Source of the DNA: Kiritimatiellia bacterium | GTDB taxonomy: Bacteria > Verrucomicrobiota > Kiritimatiellia > CAIVKH01 | Length of the DNA stretch: 64,000 nt | Assembly (NCBI GenBank): GCA_027493775.1 | Contig: JAOSKE010000002.1 | Coordinates: forward strand, 407,435-471,434 | Direction of reading: 5' to 3' | Part shown: piece by piece, positions 1 to 64,000 of the stretch | Numbering within the stretch: position 1 is the first letter of the stretch | Layout: each line of letters begins with the position of its first letter | Notes under the pieces: generated by a model | Seen by the model: the letters and a program-made list of their open reading frames with translations, nothing else | What the model was told of the DNA's origin: nothing | Database searches by the model: none | Made by a program: the position numbers and the translations under genes

Positions 1-41
1 AAACCCTTCCCCCATCAACTCATCCACTCATCAACCGGCTT

Positions 42-1668
42 ATGGGTATCCCCTTGATGCCTTTTGTGGTTAATTCTGGCGGCATTCATTTTATCGTCCC
101 TTGTCCCCTCCCCCGAAATGAGCTACGGTTAGAGGCTATGAAACAATGGATTTCTGATTCGATCATTTATCAAATTAATCTTCGCGGCCTCGCGATGCGC
201 GAGCCGCGCAATGCGATTGAGGCGGCGACCGAACGTCGGCTTGCAGAATCGCCATTGGCGTATGTCGCCAATCATCTGACGACGATCAAAAAGCTCGGCG
301 CAAATGTCCTCTATTTTATGCCGCCCTATCCCATCGGAAATGCGTTCCGAAAAGGAATCGGGTCGCCCTACTCCATCCGCAACTTTCGCGCGATTGAACC
401 GGAGTACGGAACACTCGAAGAAATGAAATCGCTCGTTCGCAAGGCGCACAAACTTGGATTCAAAGTGATCTTCGACATCACGCCGAACCATACGAGTCGC
501 GACAACGTGTGGATTCGCTCGAATCCCGAATTTTATGTGAAATGCAAAAACGGCGAAATTTTTTTATGACGCGGATTGGTCCGACACCGCAAAGCTCGAC
601 TACACACAACCGGCACTGCGCAAAAGGATGCTGGCGATCTATGACTACTGGCTCAGCTTCCTCGGCAAGGACGCAAAAGGACAGCCCGACGGCATTGATG
701 GGTTTCGTCTCGATATGGCGCACTTCATCAATGACAAGTCGTTTTGGAACGAGGCCATGCCAAGGCTGAAAAAGCGCCACGCTGGCCGCGAACTGCTATT
801 CCTCGCCGAGTGCTACGGCATTGCGAACAATGTGGACCTCTTTGACCGCGGCATCAATGCCGCCTACGATGATGATTTTTACAAAGTCTGCTCGTTCTAT
901 TACGGCATCACAGAGGAAGGGCGCTCAACAATCATCCCGTCAGCCGAGTGCGAGCACAATCACGACTTCAAAGATCGTTATCTAGCTTTTCAAAAAGGCG
1001 GTATCGCAGCCGCGTTCGAGCGCGCCTTATTGAACTACGAGGAAAAATACGCGTCGCAGGGCGCGCCCTGGGTCGCGCGCTATTCCGACAACCACGACGA
1101 GGGGCGGGGATTCTATCTATTTGGCCCCGAGGCAACAAAGGCGATCAATATGCTCGTCTTCATGGCGCCGCGAACAATTCCGTTCATTCTCACGGGCGAA
1201 GAGTTCGGCGCAACAAACCGACCGCCCATTCACGATCGGATGAACCCGATCGGCAAGCGGCGTCGTATCCAAACCGCCACCGGAATTCGTGAGCAGGAGT
1301 CCGTCGAATTCGAGGGCAATTCCTTCGCGCGCGACCCGGCGGAACGCAAAGCGATCTACAAACTCTTCCAAGACCTCATCCGACTCCGCGCACAGAACAA
1401 GGAACTCTCGCAGGGTTCGTTTGCGCTATTCAACGCGGGTGAGGAATCGCCGAGGAAACAGCGCAGCGTCGTCGCGTTTGAACGCAGGTTGGGCAACTCC
1501 ACCGTTCGCTGCGCAATCAATCTCGGGCCAACTGACCGGAAGTTGCGCAACCGCGGGCGATTCAAAGGAACTCGGTTGTTTGGCGCTCTAAAAGGAGACA
1601 CACTGCCCGCCTTCTCTGCGATTGCCGTGAAGGCTCGCACGCAGGAGCGCTCCGTTGGAACAGCTTGA
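42..1668 (+). CDS. glycoside hydrolase family 13 (alpha-amylase family) protein; frameshifted in T7 run 559-565
   Basis: ORFs 42-569 and 628-1668 lie in different frames. The first has YQINLRG and DITPNHTS motifs, the second GFRLDMAHF. Removing one T from the T7 run gives continuous GEIFYDADWSDTAKLDY. Start uncertain: in-frame ATG also at 138 and no upstream stop before the window edge. Confidence 0.8.
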
Positions 1669-1699
1669 AACTTCGGGCATTTCCGGCAAGGCTATACCG

Positions 1700-2743
1700 A
1701 TGAGCAACACACCTCCGCCCCTGCCGCGACCCCGCCGCAAGAAACGTCACATTTGGCCTTGGCTGATTTTCATTCTTGTTGTGGCGGTCATTGTCTTTGC
1801 CGGACGCACACTGCGTCAGGTGAGCAAGTCCAGCGCGCTCGTCCACTCAAAATTGATGCAACGCGGAATGCTCAGTGACCGCGCGGTGGACGAGTTCCCC
1901 GAAATGAACGAGGTCTGGTCGTACGGCAACGGCACAGTAAAAGTCGCGCGTATCGCCGTTCACGGCGTCATTATGCGTACGCCGCAAACCGGCGTATTTG
2001 CAATGCAGGGGAACATGGTGGACACCATCATTTCCCAAATCCGTCACGCGCAGGGAGACGAGAAGATTAAGGCCATAATTCTCGACGTGGACAGCCCTGG
2101 CGGCGGCGTCACCGCGAGCGATGAAATCTACAAGGCGCTCCAGGACTTCCGCGCGAGCAAGGAAGATAGAAAAGTCGTCGTTTATATGCGCGACCTTGCG
2201 GCCTCGGGCGGCTACTACGTTTCGATGGCGAGCGATTGGCTGATCGCACAACCAACCACCGTTCTCGGTTCCATCGGCGTGATTATGCAATCGTACAATG
2301 TGAAGGGCTTGGGCGAAAAATTGGGCGTTACCGATGTGACCATCAAGTCCGGTGCGAACAAGGACCTACTCAACCCATTCAGTGAAGTGGATCCCGCACA
2401 GATGGCGCTGCTGCAGGAGATGATTAATTCGATGTACGAACATTTCCTCGGCATCGTTGCAAAGAATCGCGCGATTCCGGCGCAAGATCTCCGCGCACTT
2501 GCGGACGGTCGCATCTTCGTCGCGGAACGGGCAAAGGAACTCGCGCTGGTGGATCAGATCGGCTACTGGGACGATGTGATGAAAAAGACCGCTGAATTAC
2601 TCGGCGAAGACTCAATCAAAGTCGTTCGCTACGAACAGCCGATGGATTTCATGCGGTGGATCATGGGCATCCGCGCGCCCCTGCAACCTCTGAACTGGCT
2701 GGCCCAATACAACTCCCGCTTCCTCTACCTCTGGCAGCCGTAA
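1700..2743 (+). CDS. sppA: signal peptide peptidase SppA (S49 family, 36K type)
   Basis: N-terminal TM segment WLIFILVVAVIVFA, then S49 motifs (ILDVDSPGGGVTASDEIY, AASGGYYVS). Start chosen at ATG 1700 (MSNTPPP) with upstream AAGG; the ORF track start 1655 overlaps the preceding gene. Confidence 0.85.
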   Translation: MSNTPPPLPRPRRKKRHIWPWLIFILVVAVIVFAGRTLRQVSKSSALVHSKLMQRGMLSDRAVDEFPEMNEVWSYGNGTVKVARIAVHGVIMRTPQTGVFAMQGNMVDTIISQIRHAQGDEKIKAIILDVDSPGGGVTASDEIYKALQDFRASKEDRKVVVYMRDLAASGGYYVSMASDWLIAQPTTVLGSIGVIMQSYNVKGLGEKLGVTDVTIKSGANKDLLNPFSEVDPAQMALLQEMINSMYEHFLGIVAKNRAIPAQDLRALADGRIFVAERAKELALVDQIGYWDDVMKKTAELLGEDSIKVVRYEQPMDFMRWIMGIRAPLQPLNWLAQYNSRFLYLWQP

Positions 2744-3998: not shown

Positions 3999-5487
3999 TT
4001 ACTCCATGTTTTTCAGTACGCCTGTTGCCTCATTGAATTCCGTGATCCGCCGATCCCATTCGGCGATCCGTTCCTCCGCAAAAATGTCCCGCCAGAACGA
4101 CTCGTCCCACAGCCTCCGCAAGTCTTCCACGTCCCGGCCCTGCTGTTCGACCCAGGTGAAGTATTTGAACTGATGCAACGCCTTCCGTTCCTGATAATTC
4201 AGCTCGCGGAAAAGAGATGTTGTGTGTCCATCGAGATAGGTCGCCGCCACGGAGATCGCATCGCGAGCGCTGAACCGGCCACGCGCCTCCGTCATTTCTT
4301 CGAGGCGCGATCCGTAAAGCTCCATCGAATCCGTAAGCGGAATAAACAGAACGTCATTGCGGTCCATCTCGTAATATTCGGCGGTCTTTACCGCTGCGAC
4401 CAAATTGCAGATTCCGGAAATGCCTGCGAGATCGAGCGATTCAATCGTTGCTTCTGGCACTCCGCTTGCCGCGAGCAAATTTTTTCCCTCTATCTCGTTA
4501 AACAACCGCATGAGCTGCATGACCGCCTCGTCATCCACCGCGGCCACCGCATCGGTATTGCGGACGTTGTGAACCCACGGAACATGCTTGTCCCCGATTC
4601 CCTCGATTCGGTGTGCGCCGAATCCAAACTGGTACAGCGTCGGACACTGTAACGCCTCCGCCGCAACGACACGCAGCTGTGGATATTTTGTCCGCAAATA
4701 ATCGCCCGCCGCAATGGTGCCCGCCGATCCCGTTGCGCTGATAAATCCCGCAAGCCGCGAAGAAGGCCCACGGATCTGATTTTCGTACACCTCGCTGATC
4801 AGCGAACCGGTGACGTGATAATGCCACATCGCGTTTCCAAACTCTTCTGAACTGATTGAAAATCACGATGTCATCGCCGCGCGTGCGGCGTAGCTCCCAG
4901 CACTTGTCGTAAATCTCTTTTACGTTCGACTCCGTGCCCGGCGTCGCAATGATCTCGTCCGTCCCGATCTCGCGCAACCAGTTGAATCGCTCCTGACTCA
5001 TTCCCTCCGGCAGAATCGCAATGGCGGGACAGCCCAGCAGCGCACAGTCGTACGCGCCGCCCCGACAATAGTTGCCGGTGGATGGCCACACGGCCTTTTG
5101 CCGGGTCGGATCGAACTGCCCCGAGACCAGACGCGGCACGAGACATCCATAGGCTGCGCCCACTTTATGGGCGCCCGTCGGAAACCACTTTCCGACAATG
5201 CCCACGATTCGAGCGTCCACCCCCGTCAGCGCCGAGGGAAACTCAATCCAGTTCCCTTCTCCGAATCCGCCTCCGCGCGGCTTCGGCTCGTTCTTCCATG
5301 TGATGCGAAACAAATTCAGCGGATTCACATCCCACAATCCGATGGAGGAAAGTTTTGTCTTAATCGCGGCGGGGATTTGGGAAGGATCCATTTGCTGCGC
5401 GATGGTCGGCAAAATTACATGCCGCTCTCGCGCACGACCAATCGCCCGTTGCAATACGCTCTCTTCCGCCATCAATCCCGTAGTCAT
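3999..5487 (-). CDS. TrpB-like PLP-dependent enzyme (tryptophan synthase beta superfamily); frameshifted near 4848
   Basis: N-terminal ORF 4531-5487 has the PLP-lysine motif FPTGAHKVG and ends ...DIVIFNQF. C-terminal ORF 3999-4829 continues in another frame (EEFGNAMWHYHVTGSL...). A 1-nt indel at about 4848 restores one ~495-aa protein. Confidence 0.75.
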
Positions 5488-5887: not shown

Positions 5888-6005
5888 GAGCTATTTTGCC
5901 CCGCGAACAACTCGCAACCGCCTCCGCAATTTGCGGGAAGCGGCAGGACAGGCGTCGGCAAAGCATTCGCGCTTATTCGATGTCGTCCGCTGCGTCGGCC
6001 CTCTT

Positions 6006-8330
6006 GTTATCCGCCCTCGCGTTCTTGAATCGCTTTCCAAATGGCATTCGGCATGAACGGAGAGCTGCGCATACGAACGCCCACGGCATTGTAGATGGCG
6101 TTGGCGATGCAGGGGAGCGGGCCGTTGATGCAAATTTCGGAAACGCTCTTTGCGCCGTACGGGCCACTCTTTTTCGTAGCTGGGGACCAGAATGGTCTTC
6201 AGCGCCGGCTTGTCCCGCATGGACATGATCTTGTAGTGCGCGAAGGATGGATTGAGCATCCGCCCGCGTGAACTGAAGCGATACTGCTCCGTCAACGCAT
6301 AGCTGATTCCGTTCAACACGCCGCCCTCGGTCTGGCCCTCGGCCAGCTTCGGGTTCACTGCCGTGCCGCAATCCACCGCTGCGACATAGCGCAGGACGCG
6401 CACCCTGCCGGTCAACGTGTCCACCTCCACTTCGCAGAAATGTGCGGAGAAAGGCGGCGGCGACTTGTGCGTGATATGCGAGGAAATCGCGCCAATTTGG
6501 AACTGGTCCGACCCATAGAGCGAGCGCAGCGCGATTTCCGGAGAACGTGACGGATTTTCCATCCGGCCCAAACGCGCAGTTGTCGCGCAGATCGATTTCC
6601 TTGGGTTTGCATTCCATCATCGCGGCGCCAACACCAGCGATTTGTTTGGCAACTTTTTCGGCGACGTTCTTCACCGCCATTCCGCTGAGATACGTCGTGC
6701 TGGAGGCATACGCGCCAACATCGAACGGGGTTGTGTCCGTGTCCGACGAATAGACGATGAGCTTGTCCACATCGCAGCCGACTGTTTCTGCAGCGATTTG
6801 CGCAAGAATGGTATCGCTCCCCGTCCCGATGTCCGTCGCGCCGACCAGCAAATTGAATGACCCGTCGTCATTCATCTTCATCGTTGCCGCGCCCATATCA
6901 ATTTCGGGGATGCTGGATCCCTGCATCAGCGACGCCATTCCGATGCCGCGACGGAAGCGCCCTTTTTTGTCCTGCCAGCGCCCGCGCTTTTTCCAACCGA
7001 TCTCGCGTGCGCCGAGCTTCATGCACTTCTCCATTTCGCAACTGCCGATGGACTGTTCGACGCCCGCCTTTCCTTCTCCCAGCGCCCGGAAAACCGGCGA
7101 TGTTTCACCCGAGCGAATCGTGTTCATCCGGCGGAACTCCAGCGGGTCCATGCCGAGCATCTCCGCCAGCTCATCCATCATGCAATCAATGCCGAACGTG
7201 GATTGCGTCGCGCCATACCCGCGATACGCTCCGCCGACCGGCAGGTTGGTGTATGCGGATTCGCCGACAAAGTGGATGGTTTTGCTGCGGTACAGCGGAA
7301 GAATTTTGCTGCCGCTATTGCACACCACCGTCAGCGCGTGCGCACCGTACGCCCCCGAGTTTGTGCAGCAATCCAACGCAAGCGCACTGATTGATCCATC
7401 CTTTTTCACGCCGGCACGAATACGCATTTTCTCGGGATGTCGCGTCCGGCTGGAAACAAACTCTTCCTCGCGCGTGTATTTCCAATGCACGGCCCGACCG
7501 GTACGCAACGCGAACATGGCAACCACCGGCTCCAGCAGCACCTCCTGCTTTCCTCCGAAGCCGCCTCCGATGCGGGGTTTCACAACGCGAATCCTGCGCA
7601 CCGGGATCTGAAGCACCTGCGCAACGATGCGGCGGACATGGAACGGCACCTGTGTGCTCGTTGTGACAATCACGCGACCATCTACATCAAGATGCGCGGT
7701 CACGATATGCGGTTCAATCGGACAGTGATGCGCATAGTCCGTGTAAAACTCCCGATCAAGCATCGTGTCCGCCGCCTTCAATTCGGCCTCGACATCCCCC
7801 ACGTCCATTGCGACCCGCGCGGCGAGATTCCGCTGCGGTTCGTATGGAACCGGAATCGGGACATGCGCCTCCGGCTCGTCGTGGATCACAGGCGCACCGG
7901 GCTTGAGCGCGTCATCAATCGTGAATACGGCGGGCAGTTCCTCGTACACCACCTTGATCGCCTTCACTGCTGCGGCAGCCTGTTCCGGCGTATCCGCGGC
8001 AACTGCGGCGACGCGATCACCAACGAAGCGCACTTTATTGTCAAACAGGAAGGAATCGTATGGCGAGGGCTCGGGAAAACCCTGTCCCGCAGTCGTGTGA
8101 ACCACACGCGGAACATTGCCGTGATGCAGGATGCAATGCACCCCCGGCATCTTCTCCGCCTCGCTTACATCAATGGATACAATCCGCGCGTGCGCATGGG
8201 GACTCCACAGCGCCTTCACATACAAGGAGTCGGCGGGCTTCAAATCCGCGACAAACATCGGCTTGCCGGTGGCAAGCGAGAGGGAGTCAATTTTCCGGAC
8301 GGACTTTGCGACAACATTAAATTTCTTCAT
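6006..8330 (-). CDS. xanthine dehydrogenase family molybdopterin-binding subunit (XdhD-like); two frameshifts (~6540 and ~6166)
   Basis: N-terminal 600 aa read in the frame of ORF 5973-8330 up to ...GPDGKSVTFS. The middle (FCEVEVDTLTGRVRVL...GQTEGG...ILVPSYEKE) is in the frame of ORF 5891-6571. The true C-terminus GPYGAKSVSEICINGPLPCIANAIYNAVGVRMRSSPF...EREGG-stop at 6006 is in the third frame. Confidence 0.8.
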
Positions 8331-8790: not shown

Positions 8791-9631
8791 TTACCTTCCT
8801 CCCGCCATCCCGCACGCCTCTAAAATCGCATCGGGCAAATGTGCGCGCGCCAGTTGTTTGATGTACTCACTGCTGTATCCGCGATCCCCTTTCCAGGAAA
8901 CACCGGCCAGATGCGCTTCCACGGCGGCGGCGATGTCCGCCTCTGCGCATTTTTTTCCCGACAAGCTCCGCCTCCAATGCCGAGAGTCGGCAAGGCAGCG
9001 GGACGCCCGCTCCAACCGCGACCCGTGCATCCCGAATCGTCCGGCCTTCGCGGCGAATCCATGCCGCAATGGTGAGGTGGCTGAAGTCCATATTAACAAG
9101 GCTCTCCTTGTGATAGCCAAAGCCGGACCCCTCTCCGATTTCCGGAACGGATATTTCAGTGAGCAGGTCGCCCGGCTGAAATAGACGACTCGGTTGACCA
9201 TCGAAAAAGACCGACGCCAGATGCGAGGTTTTTGCCTCGCCCGAAATGGTCATCGTTGCGTTCAGCGCAAGCAGCGCGACAGGAAAATCATTCCACGGAA
9301 AAACGCGGCTGATGTTTCCGCCGATGGTCGTCATATTTCGTAGCGGCTGACTCACAAAGCGAAGCGCGACGCGATCCAGCACCCAGCCCGGAGCGTGAAA
9401 CGCCTGCAAATCCGCAATTCGCGTATTTGCGCCGACCACAAAATGTCCATTTTTGCACTCAACACCTTCGAATCCGATATCGGCAATGTCCACACCGATT
9501 TTTTCGTCATCATTCTTAACAAATGAATGCGACGACGCGCCCGCAAGCGGCATCGCCGTCGGGCCAAGCTCCTTCAACAGTCGGCGCGCATCCGCCAGTG
9601 ATTTCGCGCGGTGATAGGCAGTCAGTTTCAT
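8791..9631 (-). CDS. FAD-binding subunit of xanthine dehydrogenase-family enzyme (YgfM-like); frameshifted in A7/T7 run 8950-8956
   Basis: ORF 8867-9631 (MKLTAYHRAKS...LPCRLSALEAELVGKK) plus the C-terminus in another frame (AEADIAAAVEAHLAGVSWKGDRGYSSEYIKQLA, part of ORF 8791-9201). The junction is at the T7 run. Confidence 0.75.
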
Positions 9632-11004
9632 ATTTGACCTCCAGCTTTCTTCAACATCATATCCGTCAACTCGTTCGCCCTATGAAAGAGACGCTGCTCA
9701 TCCGTGCCGATCAACTCGCCGCCGGCCACGCGAATGACGCCATTAACGATCGTATAATCCGCGCGCGCACCCGCGCCGCAGAACAGGATGGCGGACGCGG
9801 GATCCGTCATCGCGCCCGCGTATTCAATCCGATCCAGTCGAAACAAGGCGATATCCGCAAGCGCCCCCGGCGCAATACGTCCAATCTCCGGCCATCCGAA
9901 CACCTCTGCGCCCCCGCGCGTCGCCATGTGCAGCACACGACTCGACGGCATCGCGTCAACCGCCGTTCCAACGCGATGCGCCAGCAGCGCCATTTGCATT
10001 TCGCGGCTGAAACTGGAACTATCATTGCTGGCGGAGCCGTCCACTCCGAGCGCAACGCGAACACCCGCCTCCATCATGCGCGGAATCGGCGCAATTCCCG
10101 ACCCCAGCCGCAGATTGGACGACGGACAGTGCGCGATTCCGGTTTTCGTCGCCGCGAGTTTCTGTATTTCACCGTCATTAAAATAGATGCCGTGCGCAAA
10201 CCAGACATCGGGACCCAGCCACTCGTTCTCCTCCATGTATTCGATCGGTCGCTGTCCGAACATCTCGCGGCAGTAATTCTCCTCATCCACGGTCTCGCAC
10301 AAATGCGTGTGACAGATGACGCGATGTGCACGGGCAAAGCGGATTGTCTCCCGTAACAACTCCGTCGTAACCGAAAACGGCGAACACGGCGCGAGGGCCA
10401 GTCGACACATCGAATCCGGCTCGGGGTTGTGGTATTTTGCGATCAACCGGTCACAATCCGCGATGATTTCCTCGTGATGCTGCACCACGTCATCGGGCGG
10501 AAGTCCGCCATGTGATTTGCCCCGGCTCATGCTGCCGCGTGTGGGATGGAAGCGAATGCCCATCGCGCGCGCGGTTTCAATTTCCACATCCACCAATTCC
10601 CGCGTCACACCACGCGGGAAAACGTAAAAGTGATCCGAGGTGGTTGTGCAGCCGGACAACAACAGCTCGCCGATCCCGACACGCGCGCTGATATCCACCG
10701 CCTCCGGCGTAAGCCAGCGCCAGATTTCGTAAAGATTTGTCAGCCAGTCGAACAGTTTCGCGTTTTGAACGGCCGGAATGTTGCGCGTCAGTGTCTGATA
10801 AAGATGGTGGTGCGTATTGATGAAACCGGGGTAGAGCACATGGTTGCTCGCATCAATCACCGACGCGCCGGGTGGCGCGTCGAGCGACGGCTTAATCGCG
10901 GCGATTCGATTGCCCTCCACAAGCACATCCACGTCATGCACAGGCTGCTCGCCATCCACCATGCTGACGAGGGTCTGCACCCGTTTTAGAAGGATGGCAC
11001 TCAA
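9628..11004 (-). CDS. amidohydrolase-family deaminase (8-oxoguanine/guanine deaminase-like)
   Basis: Metal-binding motif GFINTHHHLYQT and typical amidohydrolase C-terminal half. Start is ambiguous: TTG at 11004 (after GGGGGAG) or GTG at 11019; the ORF track ATG at 11112 overlaps the upstream gene. Confidence 0.75.
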   Translation of the reverse strand: MSAILLKRVQTLVSMVDGEQPVHDVDVLVEGNRIAAIKPSLDAPPGASVIDASNHVLYPGFINTHHHLYQTLTRNIPAVQNAKLFDWLTNLYEIWRWLTPEAVDISARVGIGELLLSGCTTTSDHFYVFPRGVTRELVDVEIETARAMGIRFHPTRGSMSRGKSHGGLPPDDVVQHHEEIIADCDRLIAKYHNPEPDSMCRLALAPCSPFSVTTELLRETIRFARAHRVICHTHLCETVDEENYCREMFGQRPIEYMEENEWLGPDVWFAHGIYFNDGEIQKLAATKTGIAHCPSSNLRLGSGIAPIPRMMEAGVRVALGVDGSASNDSSSFSREMQMALLAHRVGTAVDAMPSSRVLHMATRGGAEVFGWPEIGRIAPGALADIALFRLDRIEYAGAMTDPASAILFCGAGARADYTIVNGVIRVAGGELIGTDEQRLFHRANELTDMMLKKAGGQI

Positions 11005-12316
11005 TGGATTCTCCCCCACAACGCACGCGCGCGCTCGTTTGCCTTTCTTCGTATTCCGGCTTCGTCGAGATGCGAAATGACGCCGTTTTCCAGCAACACG
11101 CGACCACGGCAAATCGTTGTCGTCACCGGCGCGGCGACTAGGCCGAACAAGAGGTGACCGTAAAATGTGGAGGAGTTGAAGGGGGTGAACGGGCGATAAT
11201 CAAAGATTGCGATGTCCGCCAGACACCCCGGCGCAAGACGTCCGCGCGGCTCCGGGAAAATACGGTCGCAAATCGCGCGGTTATTTTCCAACAACAGCCG
11301 ACACGCCTCAACAAATGCCACGCGCGGGTCGCGACGGATTGCGCGTTGCGCGAGATACGCCGCGCGCGCCTGTGCGATCAATTGGTTGGACATGCCATCC
11401 GTTCCTAGACCAAGCAGGATCCCATCGCGCAGAATTTCGAGCAACGGCGTCATCCTAAGTCCGTTGTTCATATTCGACTCGGGATTCGTCGCCATCATGC
11501 TGTCCGATTCGGCGAGCATCTTCCGGCCGCGCTCGTCCAGATGAATTCCGTGCGCGAAGATGGATTTCGGCCCGACAATGCCCGCGCGCTGGAAGCGATC
11601 AATCGGGAGCGCGCCAAATTCGCGCAGCGACGCTTCTCCATCGCACTCCGCCTCATCAATATGCACATGAAAGCCCGTGTCCAGCGCCTGGCCTTCCGCC
11701 GCACAGCGCTCCAGCGTGTCGGGGCTGAGTGTCATGGATGCGTGCAGGCCGAACAGCGGTTGTATCTGAGGGTTCTTCGCCGTCCGGCATTTCTTAATGA
11801 ACCGGATATTCTCCGCGACCCCTCCCCCTTCTTGTTGCGGTCTGACACTTCGTAGCAAAGGCAGCCATTCAATCCGGCCTCACGGAACGCGCGCTCGACT
11901 ATGTCAAGGCTTCCATCCGCGCAGGCGGGCGAGGCATGATGATCAATAATCGTTGTGCATCCGGCATGAATCGCCTCCACGCAGGGAAGAATGGACGAGT
12001 AATAGACATCCTCCGCGTCCAACGCGGCGTCGAGTTTCCACCAGAGCCGTTCGAGTATTTCCTGAAAGTTTTTCGCCGGCTCGCCCGGCGGCGAGAAGCC
12101 GCGCGCCAGGGTTGAATACAGGTGATGATGCGCATTAATCAGGCCGGGCATGACAATGCGGCCTTCCGCATCAATCGTGCGATCCACTCTTTCCGTCGCC
12201 ACACGACCGACGGCGAGAATTTTCGTGTCTTCCACGAGAATGGAGCCGTTTTCAATGATGGCCCCCGCGTCATCGAGCGTCACCAATGTTCCGTTTTGTA
12301 TTAATATGCGGCTCAT
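11001..12316 (-). CDS. ssnA: SsnA-like amidohydrolase; frameshifted in C-run 11819-11828
   Basis: N-terminal ORF 11732-12316 (MSRILIQNGTLVTLDD...GLINAHHHLYSTLARG) and C-terminal ORF 11001-11858 are in different frames; the junction ...EVSDRNKKGEG/VAENIRFIKKC lies in a C4/C5 run. Confidence 0.75.
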
Positions 12317-12317: not shown

Positions 12318-15300
12318 TTATGAATTCTCCATCAGGGGTATAAACGGAACCGATCCGCGCAGACCATTTAGCAACGCCATCATCTCCACCACCGGGCGCA
12401 GCGAAACGCGCTCGCAATCCGGCGCATTGGGCTTGGCGGTGATGGAAAGCAACTCCCAGCCCACGGACCAAACGGCATCCAGTTCAGGGCTCGAATAATC
12501 AATCCGGCCATTCAGCGACAGGGTGTGCGTTCGACCCGCGATACGCGAGTGAATGGCCGCGCCATCAGCCAATCGCTCCAAGAGAAACGCATTGTTCGAC
12601 TCGCGCTCCCATTCATCGCGCCGCGAGTAGATGCGCGGCTTGTCTTTGTACGGTTTCCCAGCGGAAGGGCAAAACGTGACGCAGTTTCCGCACTCGTTGC
12701 ACAGATCGGCAAACACCGCAACCTGGTAGCGCTGCGTGATTTTGATCGTTTCTCCGTCGAGCGCGAACCAGCGGCTATCCTTAATCCGACCCAACGGCAG
12801 TGTCTTGCAGATCGGCGCGTGCTCGTAGGTGAACAATGCAAGGTTGGGGCATACGCCGACGCAGTAGCTGCACAACAGGTCGCAATCGAGACAGCGCGAC
12901 GCCTCCTCCTTTGCGATCCGTTGACTCAACGTGTTGACAACCTCGTCGAAATCGCGGCGATCTTTCGGCGCCCGCTCCGGCGCCTTCACGGCAAATTTCC
13001 GGGTCACTCTGCGACGCTGAAATTCCGCGCGATTCACAAACAACGCGGACTCCTTTTGCCCGTCCGCAGCGCGCCCCTCAAACTTCGCGCGAATCGCGCG
13101 CGCGATTCTCTTGCCGTCGCCCAACGCCTTCACAATCGTCGCCGGCCCGCTGCCGACCGCGTCGCCGCCCGCATACACGCCCGGTGCGCTGGTTTCCAAG
13201 GTCACTGAATCAACCTGCACGTAGCCGTTCTTGTTCAGCGCGACCCCCGCCTTTTGCAGCCACTCGAAATCACCGGCCTGACTGATTGCGACAATCAGCG
13301 TGTCCATCCCGAACGTTTCCGTTTCATCGCCTTTGGGCGATGGACGACGACGCCCGCTTGCATCCGGCTCGCCCAGCTCCATAACGCGACAAACCAAGCC
13401 GGTGAGATGGCCGTTTTCAGTGAGAATTTTTGCGGCGCACGCAATTCACGAATCGGAATGCCCTCCTCCAATACGCCCCGCAATTCATCGCGCTGTGCGG
13501 GCATTTCTTTGAGGGTGCGGCGATAAATAATGTTCACGCTCTCCGCGCCAAGCCGCCATGCGGCGCGTGCGCAGTCCATCGCGACATCGCCGCCGCCAAT
13601 GACCCCGACGCGGCGTCCGATTTTGGGACGACGCCCTTCGCGCGACTCGCGGAGAAATGAAAGCGAATCCCAAACACCCGGCGCATCCTCATCTTCCAGA
13701 CCAAGCCGCCCCGCGCGCTGCGCGCCGATGGCGACAAGGACTGCCGCGTATCCTTCGCGCTGCAAATCCGACAACTGGAAATCAACACCAGCTCGCTGCT
13801 TGTGCCGGACTTCGACGCCGCGTTGCTGCAAGAACGCCAGATCGCGCTGCAACGCGTCGTCGGATGAGCGATAGCCGGGAATTGAGGAGGCAACCATTCC
13901 CCCCTTGCGATCACTCGCATCGAAGATCGTCACGGGATAACCGGCGCGCGAGAGAAAATCCGCCGCGCCCAAGCCGCATGGCCCCGCCCCAACAATTGCG
14001 ATCCGCTCTCTCTTCTTCGGCTCGACAGCCGTTTGACTCTGCGCGTAGTCAACGATGAATCGCTTGATCTCGCGTATCGCGAGCGGCTCGTCCAAGTGCG
14101 AGCGAACACAGCGCATTTGGCAGGGATGGTGACACGCGCGGCCCAAAACAGACGGCATGGTGTTGTCGCGGCACACAATCGCGACGGCCTCATCCAAGCG
14201 GCTTCCTGCGACCGCGCGCATATACTCCGGCACACCCTGCTCAATCGGACACACCTCAACGCAGGGCGCTTTGATGCAGTCGAAAAGACCAAGCGGCCGG
14301 AGCGACTTTGTATCGGTTCGATCAAACGTCTCCTCACGATACAATCTGCTATCCAACACCTCCGCCGCGTAGCGCCTCAAATTGGCCTGCGCCGCCACAA
14401 TTCGATGATCGTTCCCTGCGGTCTTGCGGACAAATTCATCCGGCGAGTGCGCCTGCGCGGACTTCATCGCCGCCGCGAGATGCTGAACGTACTGCGCGAG
14501 TCGGCCATAGCCGCCGGAGCGGAGCAAATCCGAACAGACGGTGACGGTCCTCATGCCGCACTGCATCAACGACGCGATATTGAAGGCGTCCGCGCCGCCC
14601 GCAAATGAGACATCCACTTCGCCGCCGAACGCCTCTTGCAGGCGGAGCGCGGCGTGAACCGTCACAGCATGCAGCGGGCGGCCGGACATGTACATCTGCT
14701 TTTCTTTGGCGTCAAACGTCCGGCGGTGATTGATGACTTCCAGCGTATTCGACAGCTTCACTCCGAAGGACAAGCCCTGCGCCGCAGCGACGGCGCGGAG
14801 TTCACGGATCAGTTCCACGGCGTTATCAAAAGTGATGTCGTGCTCGAACGCCGCGTCCGGAACCGTGATGTCGTCGAAGCCGAGCTGATCATTCAAAATT
14901 GCGCGCAGCCGTTCCGGGCCAAGTAGCGTGGGGTTCAACTTGACGTAGGTGTGAAGCCGCTTCTTTTCGAGCAAATAGCGGCTGATTGCGCCGATTTCGC
15001 CAGGCGGACAACCGTGCATGGTCGAGAGGGTGACATTGTTGGAAACTCGACTGGGAACAGGCACGTCACCGATGTCGGGAAATATCCTGGAGAGTGTTTC
15101 TTTTCCCTTTTGGACCAAATCAGAGGCGTTCTCCATCGCGTCGAAGAAGCCCTGCACGTTCGGCTTGAGGATTCCCTCCATGTTGTAGCCGACGCTCATG
15201 TTGAAGACGGCGCCCGGCTGGTCGCCTTCCAACCCCAATACGCGATGCAGATAATGCGTCAGCAGCCAAGCGTTCACGTATTCCTGAATAGACTCGCGCA

Positions 15301-38041: not shown

Positions 38042-38163
38042 TGTGTTTCCTCTCTCTAAAAATAGGTTGAACGTCGGGTGTAGCACGGGAACAGAGAGGT
38101 GTCACGGAGTTTGCAGAATCAGCCGCCTTGCCACGCCGCGAAGCAACTGCCTATAGTCGCGTG

Positions 38164-48504: not shown

Positions 48505-48592
48505 TGACGACCACTCCTTAATCTTGTCGCCATACCCTTTTCGAATAAAGGGCATCCCGACGTGAAAGACACGGGTGTTATAGGCAAGGATA

Positions 48593-48610
48593 TGGCAATT
48601 GAAAAGCCAA
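48593..48610 (-). promoter_or_regulatory. possible sigma-54-like or palindromic element upstream of the V-type ATPase operon
   Basis: Minus strand reads TTGGCTTTTCAATTGCCA: GG and GC at -24/-12 spacing but a weak -24 box (TGGCTT); also TGGC...GCCA inverted ends. About 90 nt upstream of the atpE ATG. Confidence 0.25.
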
Positions 48611-48663
48611 ACTCGCTCTGATCAAAAATAGGGTTTTCCCCGTAGAAAGCAGTTTATCCGCTT

Positions 48664-50344
48664 TTACGGAACCCTGAAGTTTGCGGTCAACTCAACGACC
48701 TCTTTTCCGACGGCCTCTATGACCGATTCGTTTTGCGGGTCGTTGAGCACGCGCGAAATGAATCCCGCAATACGGGCCATTTCCTTTTCCTTCATTCCGC
48801 GCGTGGTCAACGCGGGAGTGCCGAGACGAATGCCCGAAGTGACAAAGGCGCTCTTGGTATCGAACGGAATCGTGTTTTTATTGACCGTGATGTTCGCCCT
48901 ATCCAGCGCTACCGCCGCGTCCTTTCCGCTAAGCCCCGCAGCGCCGACATCCACGAGCATCAGGTGATTGTCCGTGCCACTGGAGCAAATCCGGAAGCCT
49001 GCATCCATCATCCCCTTCGCCAAGGCCCGCGCATTGGCAACGATCTGTTTCGCGTAGTCCGCGAACGACGGCTGCAGTGCCTCGCCAAAGCAAATCGCCT
49101 TCGCAGCAATAATATGCATCAGCGGCCCGCCCTGAATGCCGGGGAATACCTGCTTATCGAGATCTGCCGCAAATTTTTCGCGGCACAAAATCAAGCCACC
49201 GCGCGGGCCGCGCAGCGTCTTGTGCGTCGTCGAGGTGACAAAGTCGGAATAGGGAACCGGAGCTCGGATGCGCACCGCCCGCGACCAACCCCGCGATGTG
49301 CGCCATATCCACCATCAGCAACGCGCCGACACTGTCCGCAATCTCGCGGAAACGCTTGAAGTCAATGATGCGGGAATAGGCGCTCGCGCCGGAGGTGATT
49401 AGTTTCGGACGATGCTCCTTCGCAAGACGCTCGATCTCGTCGTAGTCAATCTGCTCCGTGTCCTGCCGCACGCCGTACGGAATCACCTTATAGTAACGGC
49501 CCGAAAAGTTCATCGGGTGACCGTGGGTCAGGTGTCCGCCATGCGAGAGATTCATCGCGAGAATCGTGTCGCCCGGTTGCAGCACTGAAAAATAAACCGC
49601 CATATTGGCCTGACTGCCGCTGTGCGTCTGCACATTCGCGTGCTCCGCGCCGAACAACTGCGTCACGCGGTCAATTGCAAGCTGCTCCGCTTTGTCCACA
49701 CACTCGCAGCCGCCGTACCAGCGCTTCTTGGGATAACCCTCGGCGTACTTGTTCGTCATATTGCAGCCAGCAGCCTGACGAATCGCGCGGCTCGTGTAGT
49801 TTTCGGAAGCAATCAGCTCCAAATTCCGGCGCTGCCGAACGCCCTCTTCCGTAATCGCTTCGAAGATCGGTGAATCGTGCTTGGCGATGGAGTCCAATCC
49901 CCCGGCAATGTTGCTCGATTGTTCAATCTTTTCGATGCGGCGAACGTGGCGGCCGCCCTCAAATTCTGTCGCAAACCACTTCTCTAAAATTGCGGGAATC
50001 TCCGCAGTCGGCGTCGTCGCCGCACCAAAGACGATGATATTTGCATTGTTGTGCAAACGTGCAAGTCGTGCCATTTCGGGCGAAACGATCAAAGCGGCGC
50101 GAATGCCGGGATAACGGTTCGCAGTGATGCTCATCCCCACGCCGGTCTTGCAGATCAACAAGCCCTGATCAAATTCGTGATCCGCAACGCGACGCGCAAC
50201 GACGCTCGCGTAGTCAGGATAGTCCACCGACTCCGGCCCAAAAGCGCCGATGTCCTCAACCTCAACGCCACGCTTTGTGAGCAGGTCCTTAACCAACGCC
50301 TTCATCTCCACGCCGCCGTGGTCGGAACCAATAATCATCTTCAT
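48664..50344 (-). CDS. glyA: ribose-5-phosphate isomerase B fused to serine hydroxymethyltransferase; frameshifted near 49264
   Basis: Residues 1-145 are RpiB ([11 protein letters not shown]...[15 protein letters not shown]...[13 protein letters not shown]), running without stop into SHMT ([11 protein letters not shown]...[11 protein letters not shown]). The SHMT C-terminus ([25 protein letters not shown]...) is in the frame of ORF 48664-49275. Confidence 0.75.
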
Positions 50345-53636: not shown

Positions 53637-54798
53637 TTAGAAAATATCTATTTCGACATCGTCCGAACTTTCGTTCGCCACACGCGCGGGAGTCTCATCG
53701 CGACCGGACGGAAGGCGGAACGAGGAAGGCGCCTTGCCCGTGCGTTTATATTCTTTGAAGTCCTGAACGAGATCGAGCAACTGAACGCGCTGCAAATATC
53801 CCTCGTCCATCGTCTTGTAGTTCACGATGTGTGAGTAGGGAATGTTGTCCAAGAGCGCCGGGTTCCGCATCTTCTTGCGGTTCACATAATTGCCGCCCTG
53901 TTGCTCGTTCCACTTCAACAATTCGCGCGTGGAAATGCCGTCGGCCCACATGCAATCGGTCGGCACCAACTGACGCTGGATACCCGCGTCCTCGCTACTC
54001 CACTCCAGGCGGCTGACGGCGTGAACGAAGACTTCGCAGAATGCGTACTTCACGTCATAGGAGAGTCCGGCAAGCATCTCAATCTGAACCTTGTCTTCCT
54101 GCTGCGGGTGTTCCGTCAACTGGTCGAGCACGAGTTTGTCGTTGATCCACATCCGTGCGCCATCGTCGGATTGTAGATAGAGGGTGTAGTGGCCGCTGCG
54201 TTTCGGAACAATGCGCCCGGTCCAGATAACGGAGAATAGGTCGGGCTTAACGCGGCCCGGCCAGGGACTGGACTCGCCCCAGTTTTTATTCAGCGTCTCG
54301 TCAATTCGCATCAGTGTTGGGCCGGTGAAGTCCACGTTCGCAAAATAGGAGCCGAGCAAACCATTTTCTGTCGCGCGCGAGCCGTAGCGACCTTTCAGCG
54401 TGCCCATGGATTGCGAATCGCCACCGAGCGCCTTGAAGGTGAGTGGGGAGTCGGACGGCAGGATACTCGGCAGCTCATCCACCATCGAAGGCGTTTCCGG
54501 CGTCACATCCGCGAGTTTCTGCGCGATATCGTCGAGAAGCGGCTGCGTATCACTTTCGCTGATCACGTCGTCGTTGAGATCCTGCAACGGCTCAATCGGG
54601 TCCCAGTTCCTTAATGTCGTCCAATTCAAGCTGTTCATCCTGAACGAGCTTCGTCTCCAAATCCGGCGTCGTACTGCTCGAGCTGAAGACCAGAAAGTGC
54701 AAAAGCGCATAAAACAAAAGGATGTGGGCCAGCACAGAAATGGCTGGGCCGCTTGAGCGCTGCAAAAATCGTATGAAAGGGCTGTTTTTATTCATCAC
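53637..54798 (-). CDS. membrane-anchored PA14 domain protein; probably frameshifted near 54595-54605
   Basis: ORF 54592-54798 gives an N-terminal TM anchor plus acidic linker ending ...DDIKELGPD-stop; ORF 53637-54710 continues the acidic linker (...IEPLQDLNDDVISESD) in another frame and contains a PA14-like domain (GLLGSYFANVDFTGP...HYTLYLQSDDGARMWIND). Confidence 0.6.
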
Positions 54799-58809: not shown

Positions 58810-58983
58810 GCGGATGCGATACAGCGCGGCGAAGATTTAGGCAATATGAAAAGAGAATCGCCTTCTTTTCGCCTTTTAGACCCGGACAGCGACAGGTCGG
58901 CACGGGCAGGGCATGCCATGTCCCTACGAATCATAACGGGAATCTAACGTGACGTTTCTGCTGGCGTGGCGCACAACTTCGGC

Positions 58984-61936
58984 ATGGCTATTCGTATTGA
59001 GGTCGGACTTCGTGACGGTGTGCCGGATGCGCGAGGGGCGGGGGTGGCTGCGGGGGCGCGCGAGGTGTTGGGGGCGCGGGTGGAGCGGTGCGCAGTGCGG
59101 GAATTTTTCTTAATCGAAGGGGCGTTGTCGCCCGCCGAAGTTGAGTTGGTGCGGGGCGCATTTGTTGATCCGGTCACACAAGTGGCAGCGGTGGATCGGC
59201 TCCCTGCCCCATCGGATTTTTCCTACGCGCTGGAGGTGGGGCTGAAGCCAGGGGTGACGGACAATCTGGGCCGGACGGCGGCGACGGTGATCGGCGACAC
59301 GTTGGGGCGCGAGGTGGCAGGTTGCGAGGTGTTCACCGGAACTCAGTATTTCCTGTGGGGTGAGGTGTCGCGTGAGGAGGCGGAGCGGATCGGATGGGAG
59401 TTGTTGGCGAATCGGCTGATTCAAACGGTAGGCGTATTTTCGGGCCGAGAGTGGGTTGTGCGCGCTGTCGGGCGCGATGCGCCGCTGGTGCGGGAAAAGA
59501 GTGCGGTGGAGGCGCGCACATTCGATCTGGAGGTGAGCGACGAGGCGCTACTGGAGATCAGTCGCAAGGGCGTGTTGTCGCTGTCGCTAGAGGAAATGCG
59601 CGCGATTCGGGAATATTACCGGAACGAGGCGGTGCGCGGGGCGCGCGTGGCTGCGGGGCTGCCGGAGTGTCCGACGGACGTGGAGCTGGAGTGTATTGCG
59701 CAGACGTGGAGCGAGCACTGCAAGCACAAGATTTTTTCGGCGCGCGTGCGATACACGGATGAGCACGGCGAGACGCGGGTGATTGATTCGCTATTCAAGA
59801 CGTTCATCAAGGCGGCAACGGCCGAGGTCGGGCGTCGAGTGGATTGGCTGGTATCGGTGTTCAGCGACAACGCGGGGGTCGTGAAATTTAACGAGCGGTG
59901 GAATGTGTTGTTCAAAGTAGAGACGCACAATAGCCCGTCGGCGTTGGACCCGTATGGGGGAGCGATCACCGGAATCGTGGGCGTGAACCGGGATGCGATG
60001 GGGACGGGAGTTGGCGGTGAGATGCTCTGTAATGTGTGGGGATATTGCTTCGGGCCGCCGGATTTCGCGGGAGATTTGCCGGAAGGCTTGATGCATCCGC
60101 GTCGGATTCGCGACGGCGTTCACACGGGGGTGATTGACGGCGGAAATCAGAGTGGGATTCCGTGGGCGCGCGGATGGGAGCTGTTTGACGAGCGATTTCT
60201 GGGAAAGCCGTTGGTGTTCTGCGGAACGGTCGGAAAGCTCCCGGTGACGGTGGGAGGTGAGCCGTCGGAGCGAAAGGAAGCACTGCCGGGCGATTTGATC
60301 GTGCAGGCGGGGGGCGCATTGGGAAAGACGGAATTCACGGGGCAACATTCTCATCCGTTGAGCTGCGCGAGGAATCGCCAGCGCAGGCGGTGCAAATTGG
60401 GGATCCGATTACACAGCGAAAGCTGTACGAATTTTTAGTCGAGGCGCGGGATGCTGGACTGTTTCGGGCAGTGACGGACAATGGCGCAGGCGGATTGAGC
60501 AGCTCGGTCGGTGAGATGTGTACGTTGAGTGGTGGAGCGGAGGTGGATTTGACAGAGGCACCGCTAAAGTATGAAGGGCTGCAACCGTGGGAGATTTTTC
60601 TTTCTGAAGCACAGGAGCGGATGACGCTGGCGGTGCCGCCGGAGAAATGGAAGGCGTTTGCAACATTGGCGCGGCGTCGGGATGTGGAGGTTGCGCGGCT
60701 CGGACATTTCACGGGTTCGGGGCAATTGCGGATATGGTATCAGGGGCGACTATACGGGGCGCTGGCGCTGGAGTTTCTGCACGAAGGTTGTCCACGAATG
60801 GAGATTCCCGCAGTGTGGTCGGCGCCGCGCGTGGCAGCGCCACCGCCACTGCCAGAGGGAGACTGCCCCGAGTGGGTCGTGCGCGTGTTGGAGGCGCTGA
60901 ACATTCGCTCAACGGAAGAAAAGAGTCGGATGTACGACGGGGAAGTGAAGGGCCTGAGTGTGGTGAAACCCTACGTGGGGGTGCGGAGCGATGTGCCGAG
61001 CGATGCGACAGTGATACGCGTGGAGTACGGCGAACACGAGGGGATCGCGCTGGCCGAGGGCGTGAATCCATTTTTGTCGGATTTGGACACGTACGCGATG
61101 GCCGCATCGGTCGTGGACGAAGGGGCGCGTCGAATTGTCAGCGTGGGCGGGCGCTGGGATCAGATTGCGGGGTTGGACAATTTCTGCTGGCCGGACCCGG
61201 TGCTGTCCGAGGGGACGCCCGACGGGCCGTATAAGATGGCGCAGTTGGTGCGGGCAAATCAGGCGCTGTACGATGTGTGCGTCGCGTACGGAATACCACT
61301 GATCAGCGGCAAGGACAGTATGAAAAACGACTCGGTGCGGGGCGGGCGCAAAATTTCGATCCCCCCACCCTGCTATTTTCGACGATTGGAAAACTGGACG
61401 ATGTGCGAAAGGCAGTAACCATGCCCTTCAAGCGCGCGGGCGATGTTATTTTTGTGCTGGGTCTCACGCGGGACGAATTGGGCGCATCGCTGTTTTATCG
61501 TCTGCGCGCCCGCGCGGCGGCGACGCCGGATCAAATTGGCGGCGCGACACCGGGGTTGGATGTGCACGTCGCAAAGCGGCTGTACGCGGCAATGAACGTG
61601 GCGCAGTCGCGTGGCTTGGTGCGGTCGTGCCATACGCCGACGCGCGGTGGATTGGCCGCTGCATGTTGTCTCGCCGCACACGGCGGCGGGTTGGGCGCGG
61701 AGATTGACTTGGAGCGCGCACCGAACAATGACGTTTCACTGGATGCGTTGTTATTCGCGGAGAGCAACAGTCGTTTTGTCACAACCTGCGCACCGGAATG
61801 CGCGGCGCAGTTCGAAGAAGTCTTCGCGGGCCTGCCGTGTGCGCGCGTGGGATTTGTTTCAGCGGAGCCGGAGGTGGCCGTGAGGTATGCGGGCCGCGAG
61901 GTCTTCCGTTGGCGCGAGGCGAACAGCGCTCGATAA
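58984..61936 (+). CDS. purL: phosphoribosylformylglycinamidine synthase PurS-PurL fusion; two frameshifts (G-run 60309-60314, C-run 61361-61366)
   Basis: PurS-like N-terminus (MAIRIEVGLRDGVPDARG...), then PurL AIRS domains. The frame changes at ...IVQAGG/RIGKDGIHGATFSSVELREE... and again at ...KISIPP/TLLFSTIGKLDDVRKA...; the three ORF-track pieces 58966-60438, 60390-61418 and 61277-61936 join into ~984 aa. Confidence 0.8.
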
Positions 61937-62741: not shown

Positions 62742-63836
62742 TCACCACGGAAGCGTTTTCGGCGTAAAGCGGTCGTTCTCGGTTCCCATACCGCCGAGTT
62801 TTGATGCGGGCGCCTCCGCACTAATCGGCGTAGTGGGCAGGGAGACCGACGCGGGCTTGATGTCCACTGCCGGTGAATCCAGCGGGCCGACCGAGAAGGG
62901 TTTGAATCCGCCGAAATCGCTGACGGCAGCGCTGCTCGAAAAGAGACTTCCGGGACTTTCCGTGTTGAAGCGTTCCGTCTTGAAGCGGTCTCCATCGCCA
63001 AATCGCGCATCCGGCGCAGCGACCGGTGTTGGCGCGGGGATATCGCGTGGCGCATCGCGCAGAGTTGGAGATACAGCGGAGAGATCGAAGAGCGACGGCG
63101 TTGCGGCGAGCTCCGCTGCGAAGCTTGGGCTATCCCAGACACCAGAACCCGAAGGAGCTGACCAGTCTGTTCCTGCGGAAATATCCTGTTGCGCGGCGCC
63201 GAGGAGATTCCGGTCAGCCTTTGGCGTGACATCGCTCGCCTGCTGCGCATCGTTCTGCGAGTCGCCGAGCCAACCAAGCGCCGGCTCGCTAATCACTGCG
63301 CGGGAACTGGATTGGTTTGTGGCTGATACCGAAGACGGGTCATCGTACGCGGTAGTCATTCGATTGGTCTGAAAATCTGTGCGTCCTGAATCGTTGTTAT
63401 CTCGGCCATTCGCCGAGCGATCATCTTCATCCTGTTGCATCGCGCGTGCGGCAAGGTTGCTTGCCATGCCATCGGCAAGCCAGCCCCAACCCGATCCGGC
63501 TTTGTTCGACAGCGAATTGTCGCGCAGCCCTAAAAATGGGTCGATTCGGTCGAAGGTTGAGTAGTCGCTTCGGCTGTCCGGATTTTGCGCAGTCGGCTGG
63601 ATAATCATCGGGATAACCCGCGTGACACCCTCCACCGCAGGCGCCTCACGCGTCGTCGGCGCTTGATCGTCTGGAATAGCCGCCGGCTTTGGCGACGCGA
63701 CCGAGAGCGGCGCATCATACAGTTGCGCACGACCGCTATAATTCGCAGGCGGCCTTTCCCTCTTCTGCGTCCCCTGCCCCATCGCCACACCAGCGAACAG
63801 AGCGAGTGCAAACGCTATGGAGCAAGTTCGAAACAT
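62742..63836 (-). CDS. hypothetical secreted low-complexity (Ser/Asp/Ala/Pro-rich) protein
   Basis: Signal peptide MFRTCSIAFALALFAGVAMG followed by low-complexity sequence; no recognised domain. Confidence 0.4.
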   Translation of the reverse strand: MFRTCSIAFALALFAGVAMGQGTQKRERPPANYSGRAQLYDAPLSVASPKPAAIPDDQAPTTREAPAVEGVTRVIPMIIQPTAQNPDSRSDYSTFDRIDPFLGLRDNSLSNKAGSGWGWLADGMASNLAARAMQQDEDDRSANGRDNNDSGRTDFQTNRMTTAYDDPSSVSATNQSSSRAVISEPALGWLGDSQNDAQQASDVTPKADRNLLGAAQQDISAGTDWSAPSGSGVWDSPSFAAELAATPSLFDLSAVSPTLRDAPRDIPAPTPVAAPDARFGDGDRFKTERFNTESPGSLFSSSAAVSDFGGFKPFSVGPLDSPAVDIKPASVSLPTTPISAEAPASKLGGMGTENDRFTPKTLPW

Positions 63837-63969
63837 AGTGCGATTGTACTCGCGCACAGAGCGGATGCAACCGCGCAGAAATCCCACCCGCTCCGCCCGA
63901 TTTTGGGCTTCCGTTCCTCTTCAACTTCTGGGTATATGATTTGCGTCGGACTGTTCCAGTCCAAGCAAC

Positions 63970-64000
63970 GGAGAGGTGGCCGAGTGGTTTAAGGCGCACG
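63970..64000 (+). tRNA. tRNA, 5' part only (truncated by window end; tRNA-Ser-like start)
   Basis: GGAGAGGTGGCCGAGTGGTTTAAGGCGCACG matches the acceptor and D-arm of a type-II tRNA; the anticodon is beyond the window. Confidence 0.6.

Follow-up and report, generated by a model that had tools for sequence, protein, structure and literature searches.

The window, by which we mean the whole 64,000-nt stretch of DNA analysed, comes from a Kiritimatiellia MAG and carries about 55 genes. Among these are a ygfK-ssnA-xdh cluster, a V-ATPase operon, an RpiB-SHMT fusion, purL, and genes for a GH13 alpha-amylase family protein and an M16 insulinase-family peptidase; about 15 of the genes (27%) are broken by small indels (Table 1). 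Scans with Rfam and for tRNAs gave a sole match, tRNA-Asp at 36668-36744, and no structured RNA hit by an indel. For the longest ORF at 9628-11112 (494 aa), no exactly matching protein was found; since the called gene has 458 aa, the two differ in their start codon.

Table 1. Genes and intergenic positions of the window affected by indels. Changes are given as window vs short-read contigs; the fifth column shows where the preliminary description had placed the disruption.
Feature	Positions	Strand	Protein or context	First placed at	Aligned site and change
Intergenic error	110..114	.	about 28 nt upstream of GH13 start (MKQW..., about 138)		C5 vs C6 in 6/6 contigs
GH13 alpha-amylase family	138..1668	+	intact 501-509 aa on short-read contigs; ORF after edits 534 aa	559-565	559, T7 vs T6
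PLP-dependent (PALP) enzyme	3999..5487	-	intact 495 aa	~4848 (as TrpB-like)	4848, TTCTGAA vs TTCGAA, extra T outside homopolymer
Intergenic error	5999..6001	.	8 nt past XDH stop		C3 vs C4 in 6/6 contigs
Xanthine-dehydrogenase-like Mo subunit	6007..8330	-	intact 773 aa; 6170-6538 segment out of frame	~6166; ~6540	6170, T5 vs T4; 6538, CC vs C
XDH FAD-binding subunit	8791..9631	-	intact 279 aa	8950-8956	8950, T7 vs T6
SsnA aminohydrolase	11001..12316	-	intact 438 aa; 479 bits vs NF005540 (cut-off 444)	11819-11828	11819, C4 vs C5
YgfK	12318..15715	-	intact 1110 aa (ORF 1132 aa); 932 bits vs TIGR03315 (cut-off 835)	13427-13431	13427, T5 vs T6
M16 insulinase-family peptidase	23998..26642	+	intact 880 aa; 845 aa in window	26523-26532	26523-26524, (GC)5 vs (GC)4
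DUF4380 protein	38128..39226	+	ORF after edits 366 aa		38265, C6 vs C7; 38266, C5 vs C6
V-ATPase subunit K	41423..41880	-	intact 152 aa	~41761	41748, A5 vs A6
V-ATPase subunit I	41906..43670	-	intact 587 aa; fragment 376 aa = MCZ7592248.1	42538-42541	42542, A3 vs A2
V-ATPase subunit B	44283..45588	-	intact 434 aa	45480-45483	45480, C4 vs C3
DUF2764 protein, V-ATPase operon	47329..47878	-	intact 182 aa	47649-47662 (as V-ATPase hypothetical)	47648, extra A
Two intergenic errors	48538..48628	.	SHMT gene to 207-aa gene		48538, T4 vs T3; 48624, A5 vs A6
RpiB-SHMT fusion	48664..50344	-	intact 559 aa	~49264	49261, CCGGAGCTC vs CCGGGCTC, extra A outside homopolymer
PA14-domain protein	53637..54798	-	intact 385 aa (ORF 386 aa)	~54600	54602, C3 vs C2
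PurL	58966..61936	+	intact 984 aa (ORF 990 aa); three pieces	60309-60314; 61361-61366	60309, G6 vs G7; 61361, C6 vs C7

The window was compared with 28 independent Logan short-read contigs of the same organism, derived from at least 15 SRA runs; the runs containing the same strain include SRR11288142 and SRR25580105. These contigs tile positions 21-64000 with an identity of 99.66-99.99%; the segment 33120-35581 is covered by a single contig, and no indels were seen there. Alignment to these independent assemblies revealed 23 inserted or deleted bases, corresponding to 22 events. At 23/23 bases the window was opposed by every covering contig (4-12 per site), and the contigs were unanimous. All independent short-read assemblies of this organism have the genes intact. 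The broken genes therefore represent consensus mistakes of one or two bases, and we hold with very high confidence that the frames are disrupted by base-calling errors in the consensus of this one MAG and not by real pseudogenisation.

In the preliminary description, at least 16 conserved genes had been reported as split, mostly in homopolymer or GC-dinucleotide tracts. All 16 sites are real frame disruptions, each matching an aligned indel with an offset of 0-13 nt, but the genes concerned are 14, the XDH Mo subunit and PurL having two sites each. The sequence context had also been recognised correctly, since 18/22 events are homopolymer length changes and one is the gain of a GC unit, while the remaining three (4848, 47648 and 49261) are single-base insertions outside any run. 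At 47648 the disruption exists, but it is not the change in the GC repeat that had been proposed, as the extra A lies immediately before (GC)n. Six events had escaped that description, four of them intergenic and two in a fifteenth gene, that of the DUF4380 protein. In the latter, two C are absent from the poly-C tract coding for PLPPSPL, and the indels cut the mature protein off from its signal peptide. It is very unlikely that a few events are real within-population heterogeneity, the candidates being the CCCCCTCCCCCCCTCCCCCCTCC tract at the DUF4380 N-terminus, with its double change, and the GC unit of the M16 gene. If this were true, the tracts would be prone to slippage, and some of the cells sampled for the MAG would have a secreted protein switched off.

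True pseudogenisation would mean that the sampled lineage is in genome decay and that the inactivating mutations are real. Frameshifts in many genes are indeed typical of decaying genomes, and a private lineage would be compatible with the window taken alone; the other strains, however, make this reading highly improbable, and less likely than heterogeneity at a few sites. Sharing of the indels by related strains, named beforehand as the sign of true pseudogenes or recoding, was looked for in the 28 contigs, and 0/28 carry any window indel. Strains that are 0 to 44 SNPs per ~14 kb away all lack them, so that the lesions are private to the window's assembly and not inherited. Contigs that match the window without a single substitution over 15-16 kb still differ from it by 2-6 indels: we counted 0 mismatches and 2 gaps over 14,974 bp (L026), 0 and 6 over 16,288 bp (L005), and 0 and 6 for L004, whereas L001 showed 1 mismatch and 10 gaps over 20,626 bp. 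In near-identical contigs, indels therefore far outnumber substitutions with respect to the window. Real divergence, in contrast, consists mostly of substitutions, the contigs being polymorphic among themselves at 149 positions by substitution and at 0 by indel. The ratio of private indel bases to substitutions is thus 23:6 in the window and 0:149 among natural strains (Fisher exact p = 9e-24). The 6 window-private substitutions, 4 of which are transversions, may be errors or else genuine SNPs of the strain. Decay would also have had to strike 27% of the genes, among them purL, that for SHMT and those for three V-ATPase subunits, without any amino-acid changes beside the frameshifts, and the truncated proteins are singletons known from one record. 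The involvement of essential genes had already been taken as an argument for error, and the hits in purL, the SHMT gene and atpB/I/K show that selection has not kept the indels out of coding or essential sequence. As about 94% of the window is coding, 18/22 events are genic and cause a frameshift.

The position of the indels was set against homopolymer length, a comparison that had been suggested together with the claim. Miscalls by true run length were 1/35,154 (1 base), 2/9,485 (2), 2/2,152 (3), 2/577 (4), 1/161 (5), 7/41 (6) and 3/6 (7), so that the miscall probability climbs from 3e-5 for single bases to 0.35% for runs of 4, 17% for runs of 6 and 50% for runs of 7. Runs of 5-7 are mostly one base short and runs of 1-4 mostly one base long. 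The profile is not purely length-driven, because the insertions at 4848, 47648 and 49261 are non-homopolymer and both 8-base runs (2/2, a small sample) are correct. A common motif was looked for at these three insertions, three cases being too few for a conclusion. Overall, the density is about 1 indel per 2.8 kb, or ~3.6e-4 per base (roughly Q34).

Changes of one base in homopolymers are also the signature of slippage, and the poly-C tract at 38254-38275 is of a type able to phase-vary. A mismatch-repair-deficient hypermutator, or slipped-strand phase variation, would thus make the length changes real, either heritable or heterogeneous in the population. We consider the chance of this fainter still than that of pseudogenisation. 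Half of the events lie in runs of at most 4 bases and three outside any run, and tract length is invariant among the 4-12 contigs from different samples. Loss of mismatch repair would be expected to give an excess of transitions, but private substitutions are few and mainly transversions. The targets, moreover, are housekeeping enzymes and not contingency loci.

The consequences of the consensus errors were examined by undoing the 23 base changes, which repaired the window and gave 15 full-length single ORFs of 534, 495, 773, 279, 438, 1132, 880, 366, 152, 587, 434, 182, 559, 386 and 990 aa. These lengths equal the short-read gene calls or exceed them by 1-40 residues where the longest ORF begins upstream of the called start. 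The repaired proteins align end to end with NCBIfam models, with scores beyond the curated cut-offs for SsnA, YgfK, AtpB, AtpK, SHMT and RpiB; each unrepaired fragment covers just consecutive portions of the family models. Repeat collapse is possible in De Bruijn contigs, so in principle the short-read contigs might be wrong and the window right. This is scarcely credible, considering that all 28 contigs, from their at least 15 runs, agree, and that the contig state yields full-length conserved proteins fitting the family models while the window state truncates them. Illumina data are not known to miscount 2-7-base runs systematically.

Reading frames were also checked across species, in relatives taken from a scan of GTDB representatives with AtpA. 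The window's own species was not found among the matches listed, the best of which was the Kiritimatiellia MAG ACE_NR_VERR3 (87% amino-acid identity). In the nearest species among the matches listed (L029, AtpA 87% identical), atpI, atpB and the DUF2764, RpiB-SHMT and PA14 genes are single-frame across the sites, and the atpB site is read through in one frame at 43/43 orthologue loci. For AtpK, a short hydrophobic protein, a single-frame tblastn HSP crosses the site in 4/23 loci; this site is settled by the same-species contigs. Programmed ribosomal frameshifting or recoding, by which the genes would be expressed through the shifts, is the least credible reading of all: some sites look slippery (T7, A-rich), but programmed frameshifts are conserved in orthologues, and the reading is refuted by these genes being single-frame across every tested site in the same and in other species. 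The shifts, moreover, mix +1, -1 and +2 without a common motif.

Consensus error thus remains the preferred explanation. The sequencer or the consensus step misjudged the lengths of short repeats and added a few stray bases; the genes of the organism itself are intact. The MAG was very probably built from long, error-prone reads of a nanopore-like kind that had too little polishing with short reads. This technology is inferred from the error profile and, indirectly, from the length of the MAG contig, 668 kb, against at most 49 kb for the organism's short-read contigs.

The broken genes are an ordinary assembly artefact, and their importance is practical rather than biological. For about a quarter of the region's genes the annotation wrongly shows a truncated, split or hypothetical protein, and at least two truncated products, MCZ7592248.1 and MCZ7592231.1, have already entered NCBI nr and protein clusters. 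The expectation that automated annotation would contain split genes is confirmed by AtpI and M16, whose truncated forms (376 aa and 845 aa, respectively) are deposited at NCBI from one MAG contig only (667,893 bp, locus-tag prefix M5U15); protein MCZ7592250.1 carries the same prefix. The other members of these clusters are all 587 aa and 880 aa, respectively, and the intact forms occur on dozens of contigs. Metabolic reconstruction, pseudogene counts, completeness estimates or pangenome work on this genome would produce false calls of gene loss, affecting V-ATPase, purine synthesis, serine/glycine interconversion and the ygfK-ssnA-xdh cluster.

Pseudogene-rich decaying genomes, for example those of Mycobacterium leprae and Sodalis glossinidius, likewise have many conserved genes frameshifted. 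Their lesions, however, are shared within the lineage, come with substitutions, deletions and IS elements, and spare essential genes, whereas those of the window are private to one assembly, almost free of substitutions and random over biosynthetic and ATPase genes. Phase-variable contingency loci, for example those of Helicobacter, Neisseria and Campylobacter, resemble the window in that mononucleotide runs, lying in genes or ahead of them, gain or lose one base. Contingency tracts are usually at least 7 nt long, vary between isolates and lie in surface or restriction-modification genes; in contrast, the tracts of the window are 1-7 nt, invariant across independent assemblies and located in housekeeping genes. 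Long-read assemblies are known for homopolymer-linked indels that fragment genes (PMC12007338, citing Watson & Warr 2019, Nat Biotechnol 37:124). As in the window, the errors of ONT and PacBio CLR assemblies are nearly all 1-base indels with respect to accurate assemblies. They cluster in homopolymers, where long runs come out too short, with occasional insertions elsewhere, and they split genes into adjacent ORFs of different frames, which then appear in annotations as separate, truncated or hypothetical proteins. With these assemblies, whose technology we infer for the MAG, there is no substantive difference, and the residual error rate of the window is what partly polished assemblies typically show.

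In the window, each of the listed sites shows a pair of ORFs on one strand, in different frames, that adjoin or overlap each other (six-frame ORF list), and NCBIfam scans showed that the split fragments match consecutive stretches of single family models. The fragments of the XDH Mo subunit correspond to positions 1-568 and 581-713 of the 758 of the XdhA profile, those of the PLP-dependent enzyme to positions 51-141 and 161-276 of the cysK model, and those of GH13 to an N-terminal and a C-terminal part. The ORF pairs and the fragment coverage bear out the preliminary description, which had read 16 sites with split conserved genes from the sequence alone. The gene count of 16, however, has to be corrected, since the sites fall in 14 genes; a fifteenth broken gene, DUF4380, was absent from that list.

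Exact-protein look-ups with five intact window proteins (AtpA, OTCase-like, PALP enzyme, M20 peptidase and DAG-kinase-like) yielded 28 contigs of the same organism, assembled in Logan from the short reads of at least 15 different SRA runs. These contigs cover window positions 21-64000 at 99.66-99.99% identity (megablast), and every affected gene is one full-length call on them (Table). A base-by-base tally of window against contigs gave 23 indel bases in 22 events, each covered by 4 to 12 contigs that unanimously oppose the window. No indel polymorphism was found among the contigs, as compared to 149 substitution positions that vary between them, and only six window-private substitutions were counted at a coverage of at least 4 (private indels and substitutions vs. 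between-contig variation, Fisher p = 9e-24). In megablast alignments, the contigs nearest to the window deviated through indels alone: L026 showed 0 mismatches and 2 gaps over 14,974 bp, L005 0 and 6 over 16,288 bp, L004 0 and 6, and L001 1 and 10 over 20,626 bp. Divergence by indels only, together with strain variation by substitutions only, is the product of consensus error and not the outcome of mutation, whatever the selection regime. The private substitutions listed in the Table could be either genuine SNPs of the strain or errors of substitution. At positions 25 and 38 every covering contig differs from the window. At the left edge (1-40) six contigs (L017-L022) each reach only ~130 nt past position 1, and at the right edge four (L005-L008) stop 1-56 nt past position 64000; these ends suggest repeats or variable regions directly outside the window.

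Undoing the 23 bases changes the window from 64,000 to 63,997 nt and gives a single ORF per split gene, as long as the short-read call or, where the longest ORF begins upstream of the called start, 1-40 residues longer. The repaired genes align end to end to NCBIfam models, with scores above the curated cut-offs for SsnA (479 bits vs. 444), YgfK (932 vs. 835), AtpB (753 vs. 431), AtpK (192 vs. 127), SHMT (637 vs. 335) and RpiB (171.5 vs. 138.65); for AtpI, PurL and XdhA-like the alignment spans the whole model, with scores under the equivalog cut-offs. Therefore, the gene names first proposed are essentially right, except that "unassigned PALP enzyme" is a better term than "TrpB-like" and that what was named SHMT is encoded as an RpiB-SHMT fusion. 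Since no contig shares any lesion and repair restores full-length genes, error is supported over pseudogenisation, as had been argued, and we are nearly certain that the frame disruptions are sequencing or assembly errors. True pseudogenes are contradicted by lesions common to no other strain and by the absence of substitutions alongside them.

Eighteen of the 22 events are homopolymer length changes, one is the gain of a GC unit, from (GC)4 to (GC)5, at 26523-26524, and three are lone bases inserted outside runs (T 4848, A 47648, A 49261). The disruption described at a GC repeat near 47648 is real, but it consists of the A inserted beside the repeat and not of a change in repeat length. Miscalls by true run length were 1/35,154 (length 1), 2/9,485 (2), 2/2,152 (3), 2/577 (4), 1/161 (5), 7/41 (6), 3/6 (7) and 0/2 (8); runs of at least 5 were under-called in 9 of 11 cases, and runs of up to 3 were over-called every time. 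Assemblies from long reads, nanopore ones in particular, are described as having this same error profile (PMC12007338, citing Watson & Warr 2019). With 18 of 22 events coding in a window that is ~94% coding, there was no sign of selection against frameshifts inside genes. A mismatch-repair-deficient hypermutator or phase variation is contradicted by tract lengths that are constant across contigs, by the half of the events that sit in runs of up to 4 bases and by transitions that are not in excess.

The proposed comparison of frames in relatives showed orthologues mostly in a single frame. A scan of GTDB representatives with AtpA as query brought up relatives from Kiritimatiellia and other PVC groups, the closest among the matches listed being a contig (L029) of the Kiritimatiellia MAG ACE_NR_VERR3, at 87% amino-acid identity. 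In tblastn with the repaired proteins, this contig gave single-frame, essentially full-length HSPs for AtpI, AtpB, DUF2764, RpiB-SHMT and PA14, and among the matches listed the site was crossed in one frame at 43/43 loci for AtpB, 39/39 for DUF2764 and 26/32 for AtpI. Programmed frameshifting is contradicted by these in-frame orthologues, and an error in the short reads by the full-length conserved proteins that their state yields.

The AtpA sequence of the window is identical to NCBI MCZ7592250.1 ("MAG: Kiritimatiellae bacterium"), which lies on a contig of 667,893 bp. The 376-aa AtpI fragment ("hypothetical protein M5U15_08875", MCZ7592248.1) and the shortened, 845-aa M16 peptidase (MCZ7592231.1) were found only in that one record; the other members of their 90% clusters, from dozens of contigs, measure 587 and 880 aa, respectively. 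The size of the MAG contig (668 kb vs. at most 49 kb for the short-read contigs) points to a long-read assembly. The disruptions are an assembly artefact, whose practical importance is for annotation only.

Features of the window and of the matching short-read contigs
Feature	Window position	Strand	Length (aa)	Remark
GH13			501-509	full-length call
PALP			495	full-length call
XDH-Mo			773	full-length call
XDH FAD subunit			279	full-length call
SsnA			438	full-length call
YgfK			1110	full-length call
M16			880	full-length call
DUF4380			326	full-length call
DUF4380 start region	38128-38300	+		in L001: 18850-19191 (-)
AtpK			152	full-length call
AtpI			587	full-length call
AtpB			434	full-length call
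DUF2764			182	full-length call
RpiB-SHMT	48664-50344	-	559	full-length call
PA14			385	full-length call
PurL			984	full-length call
Intergenic events	110, 5999, 48538, 48624			four of 22
Window-private substitutions	14617, 15757, 17947, 37692			another base in all 4-6 covering contigs
SHMT-gene contig ends and strain-variable segment	~49199-49232 and 48826-49023			short-read contigs
Large cluster	2806-20536			M20 peptidase, PALP enzyme, XDH-like Mo/Fe-S/FAD subunits, two amidohydrolases (one SsnA), YgfK, serine-dehydratase-like, OTCase-like (ygeW-like), carbamate-kinase-like, second PALP enzyme
Three tandem HSP20-family small heat-shock genes	29286-30663	+	145, 129, 171	
Two adjacent OTCase-fold genes	56770-58809	-	312, 363	beside purL/purQ
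Third OTCase-like gene	17096-18319			
tRNA-Asp (GTC)	36668-36744	-		sole structured RNA found in window; L001 stops within it

In DUF4380, two C are absent (38265 and 38266) in the PLPPSPL-coding tract directly after a good signal peptide. The automatic call probably begins too far downstream: from an ATG ahead of it, translation yields a typical signal peptide, MNKINWATLAISALFAMPAHSA, and then the proline-rich stretch that the poly-C tract encodes. The fusion protein carries RpiB (ribose-5-phosphate isomerase B) N-terminal to serine hydroxymethyltransferase, each half scoring above its NCBIfam cut-off, and is also found in L029, where identity is 74.6% along the entire 559 aa. Inside its gene, contigs of many different runs stop at one place, and contigs from opposite sides share an overlap of ~31 nt, a pattern resembling a branch point in a de Bruijn graph. 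Adjoining this end, the strain represented by contig L003 has 10 SNPs in 200 bp, suggesting a strain-variable or recombined segment. The large cluster of this Kiritimatiellia genome resembles the ygeW-ygfK region of E. coli.
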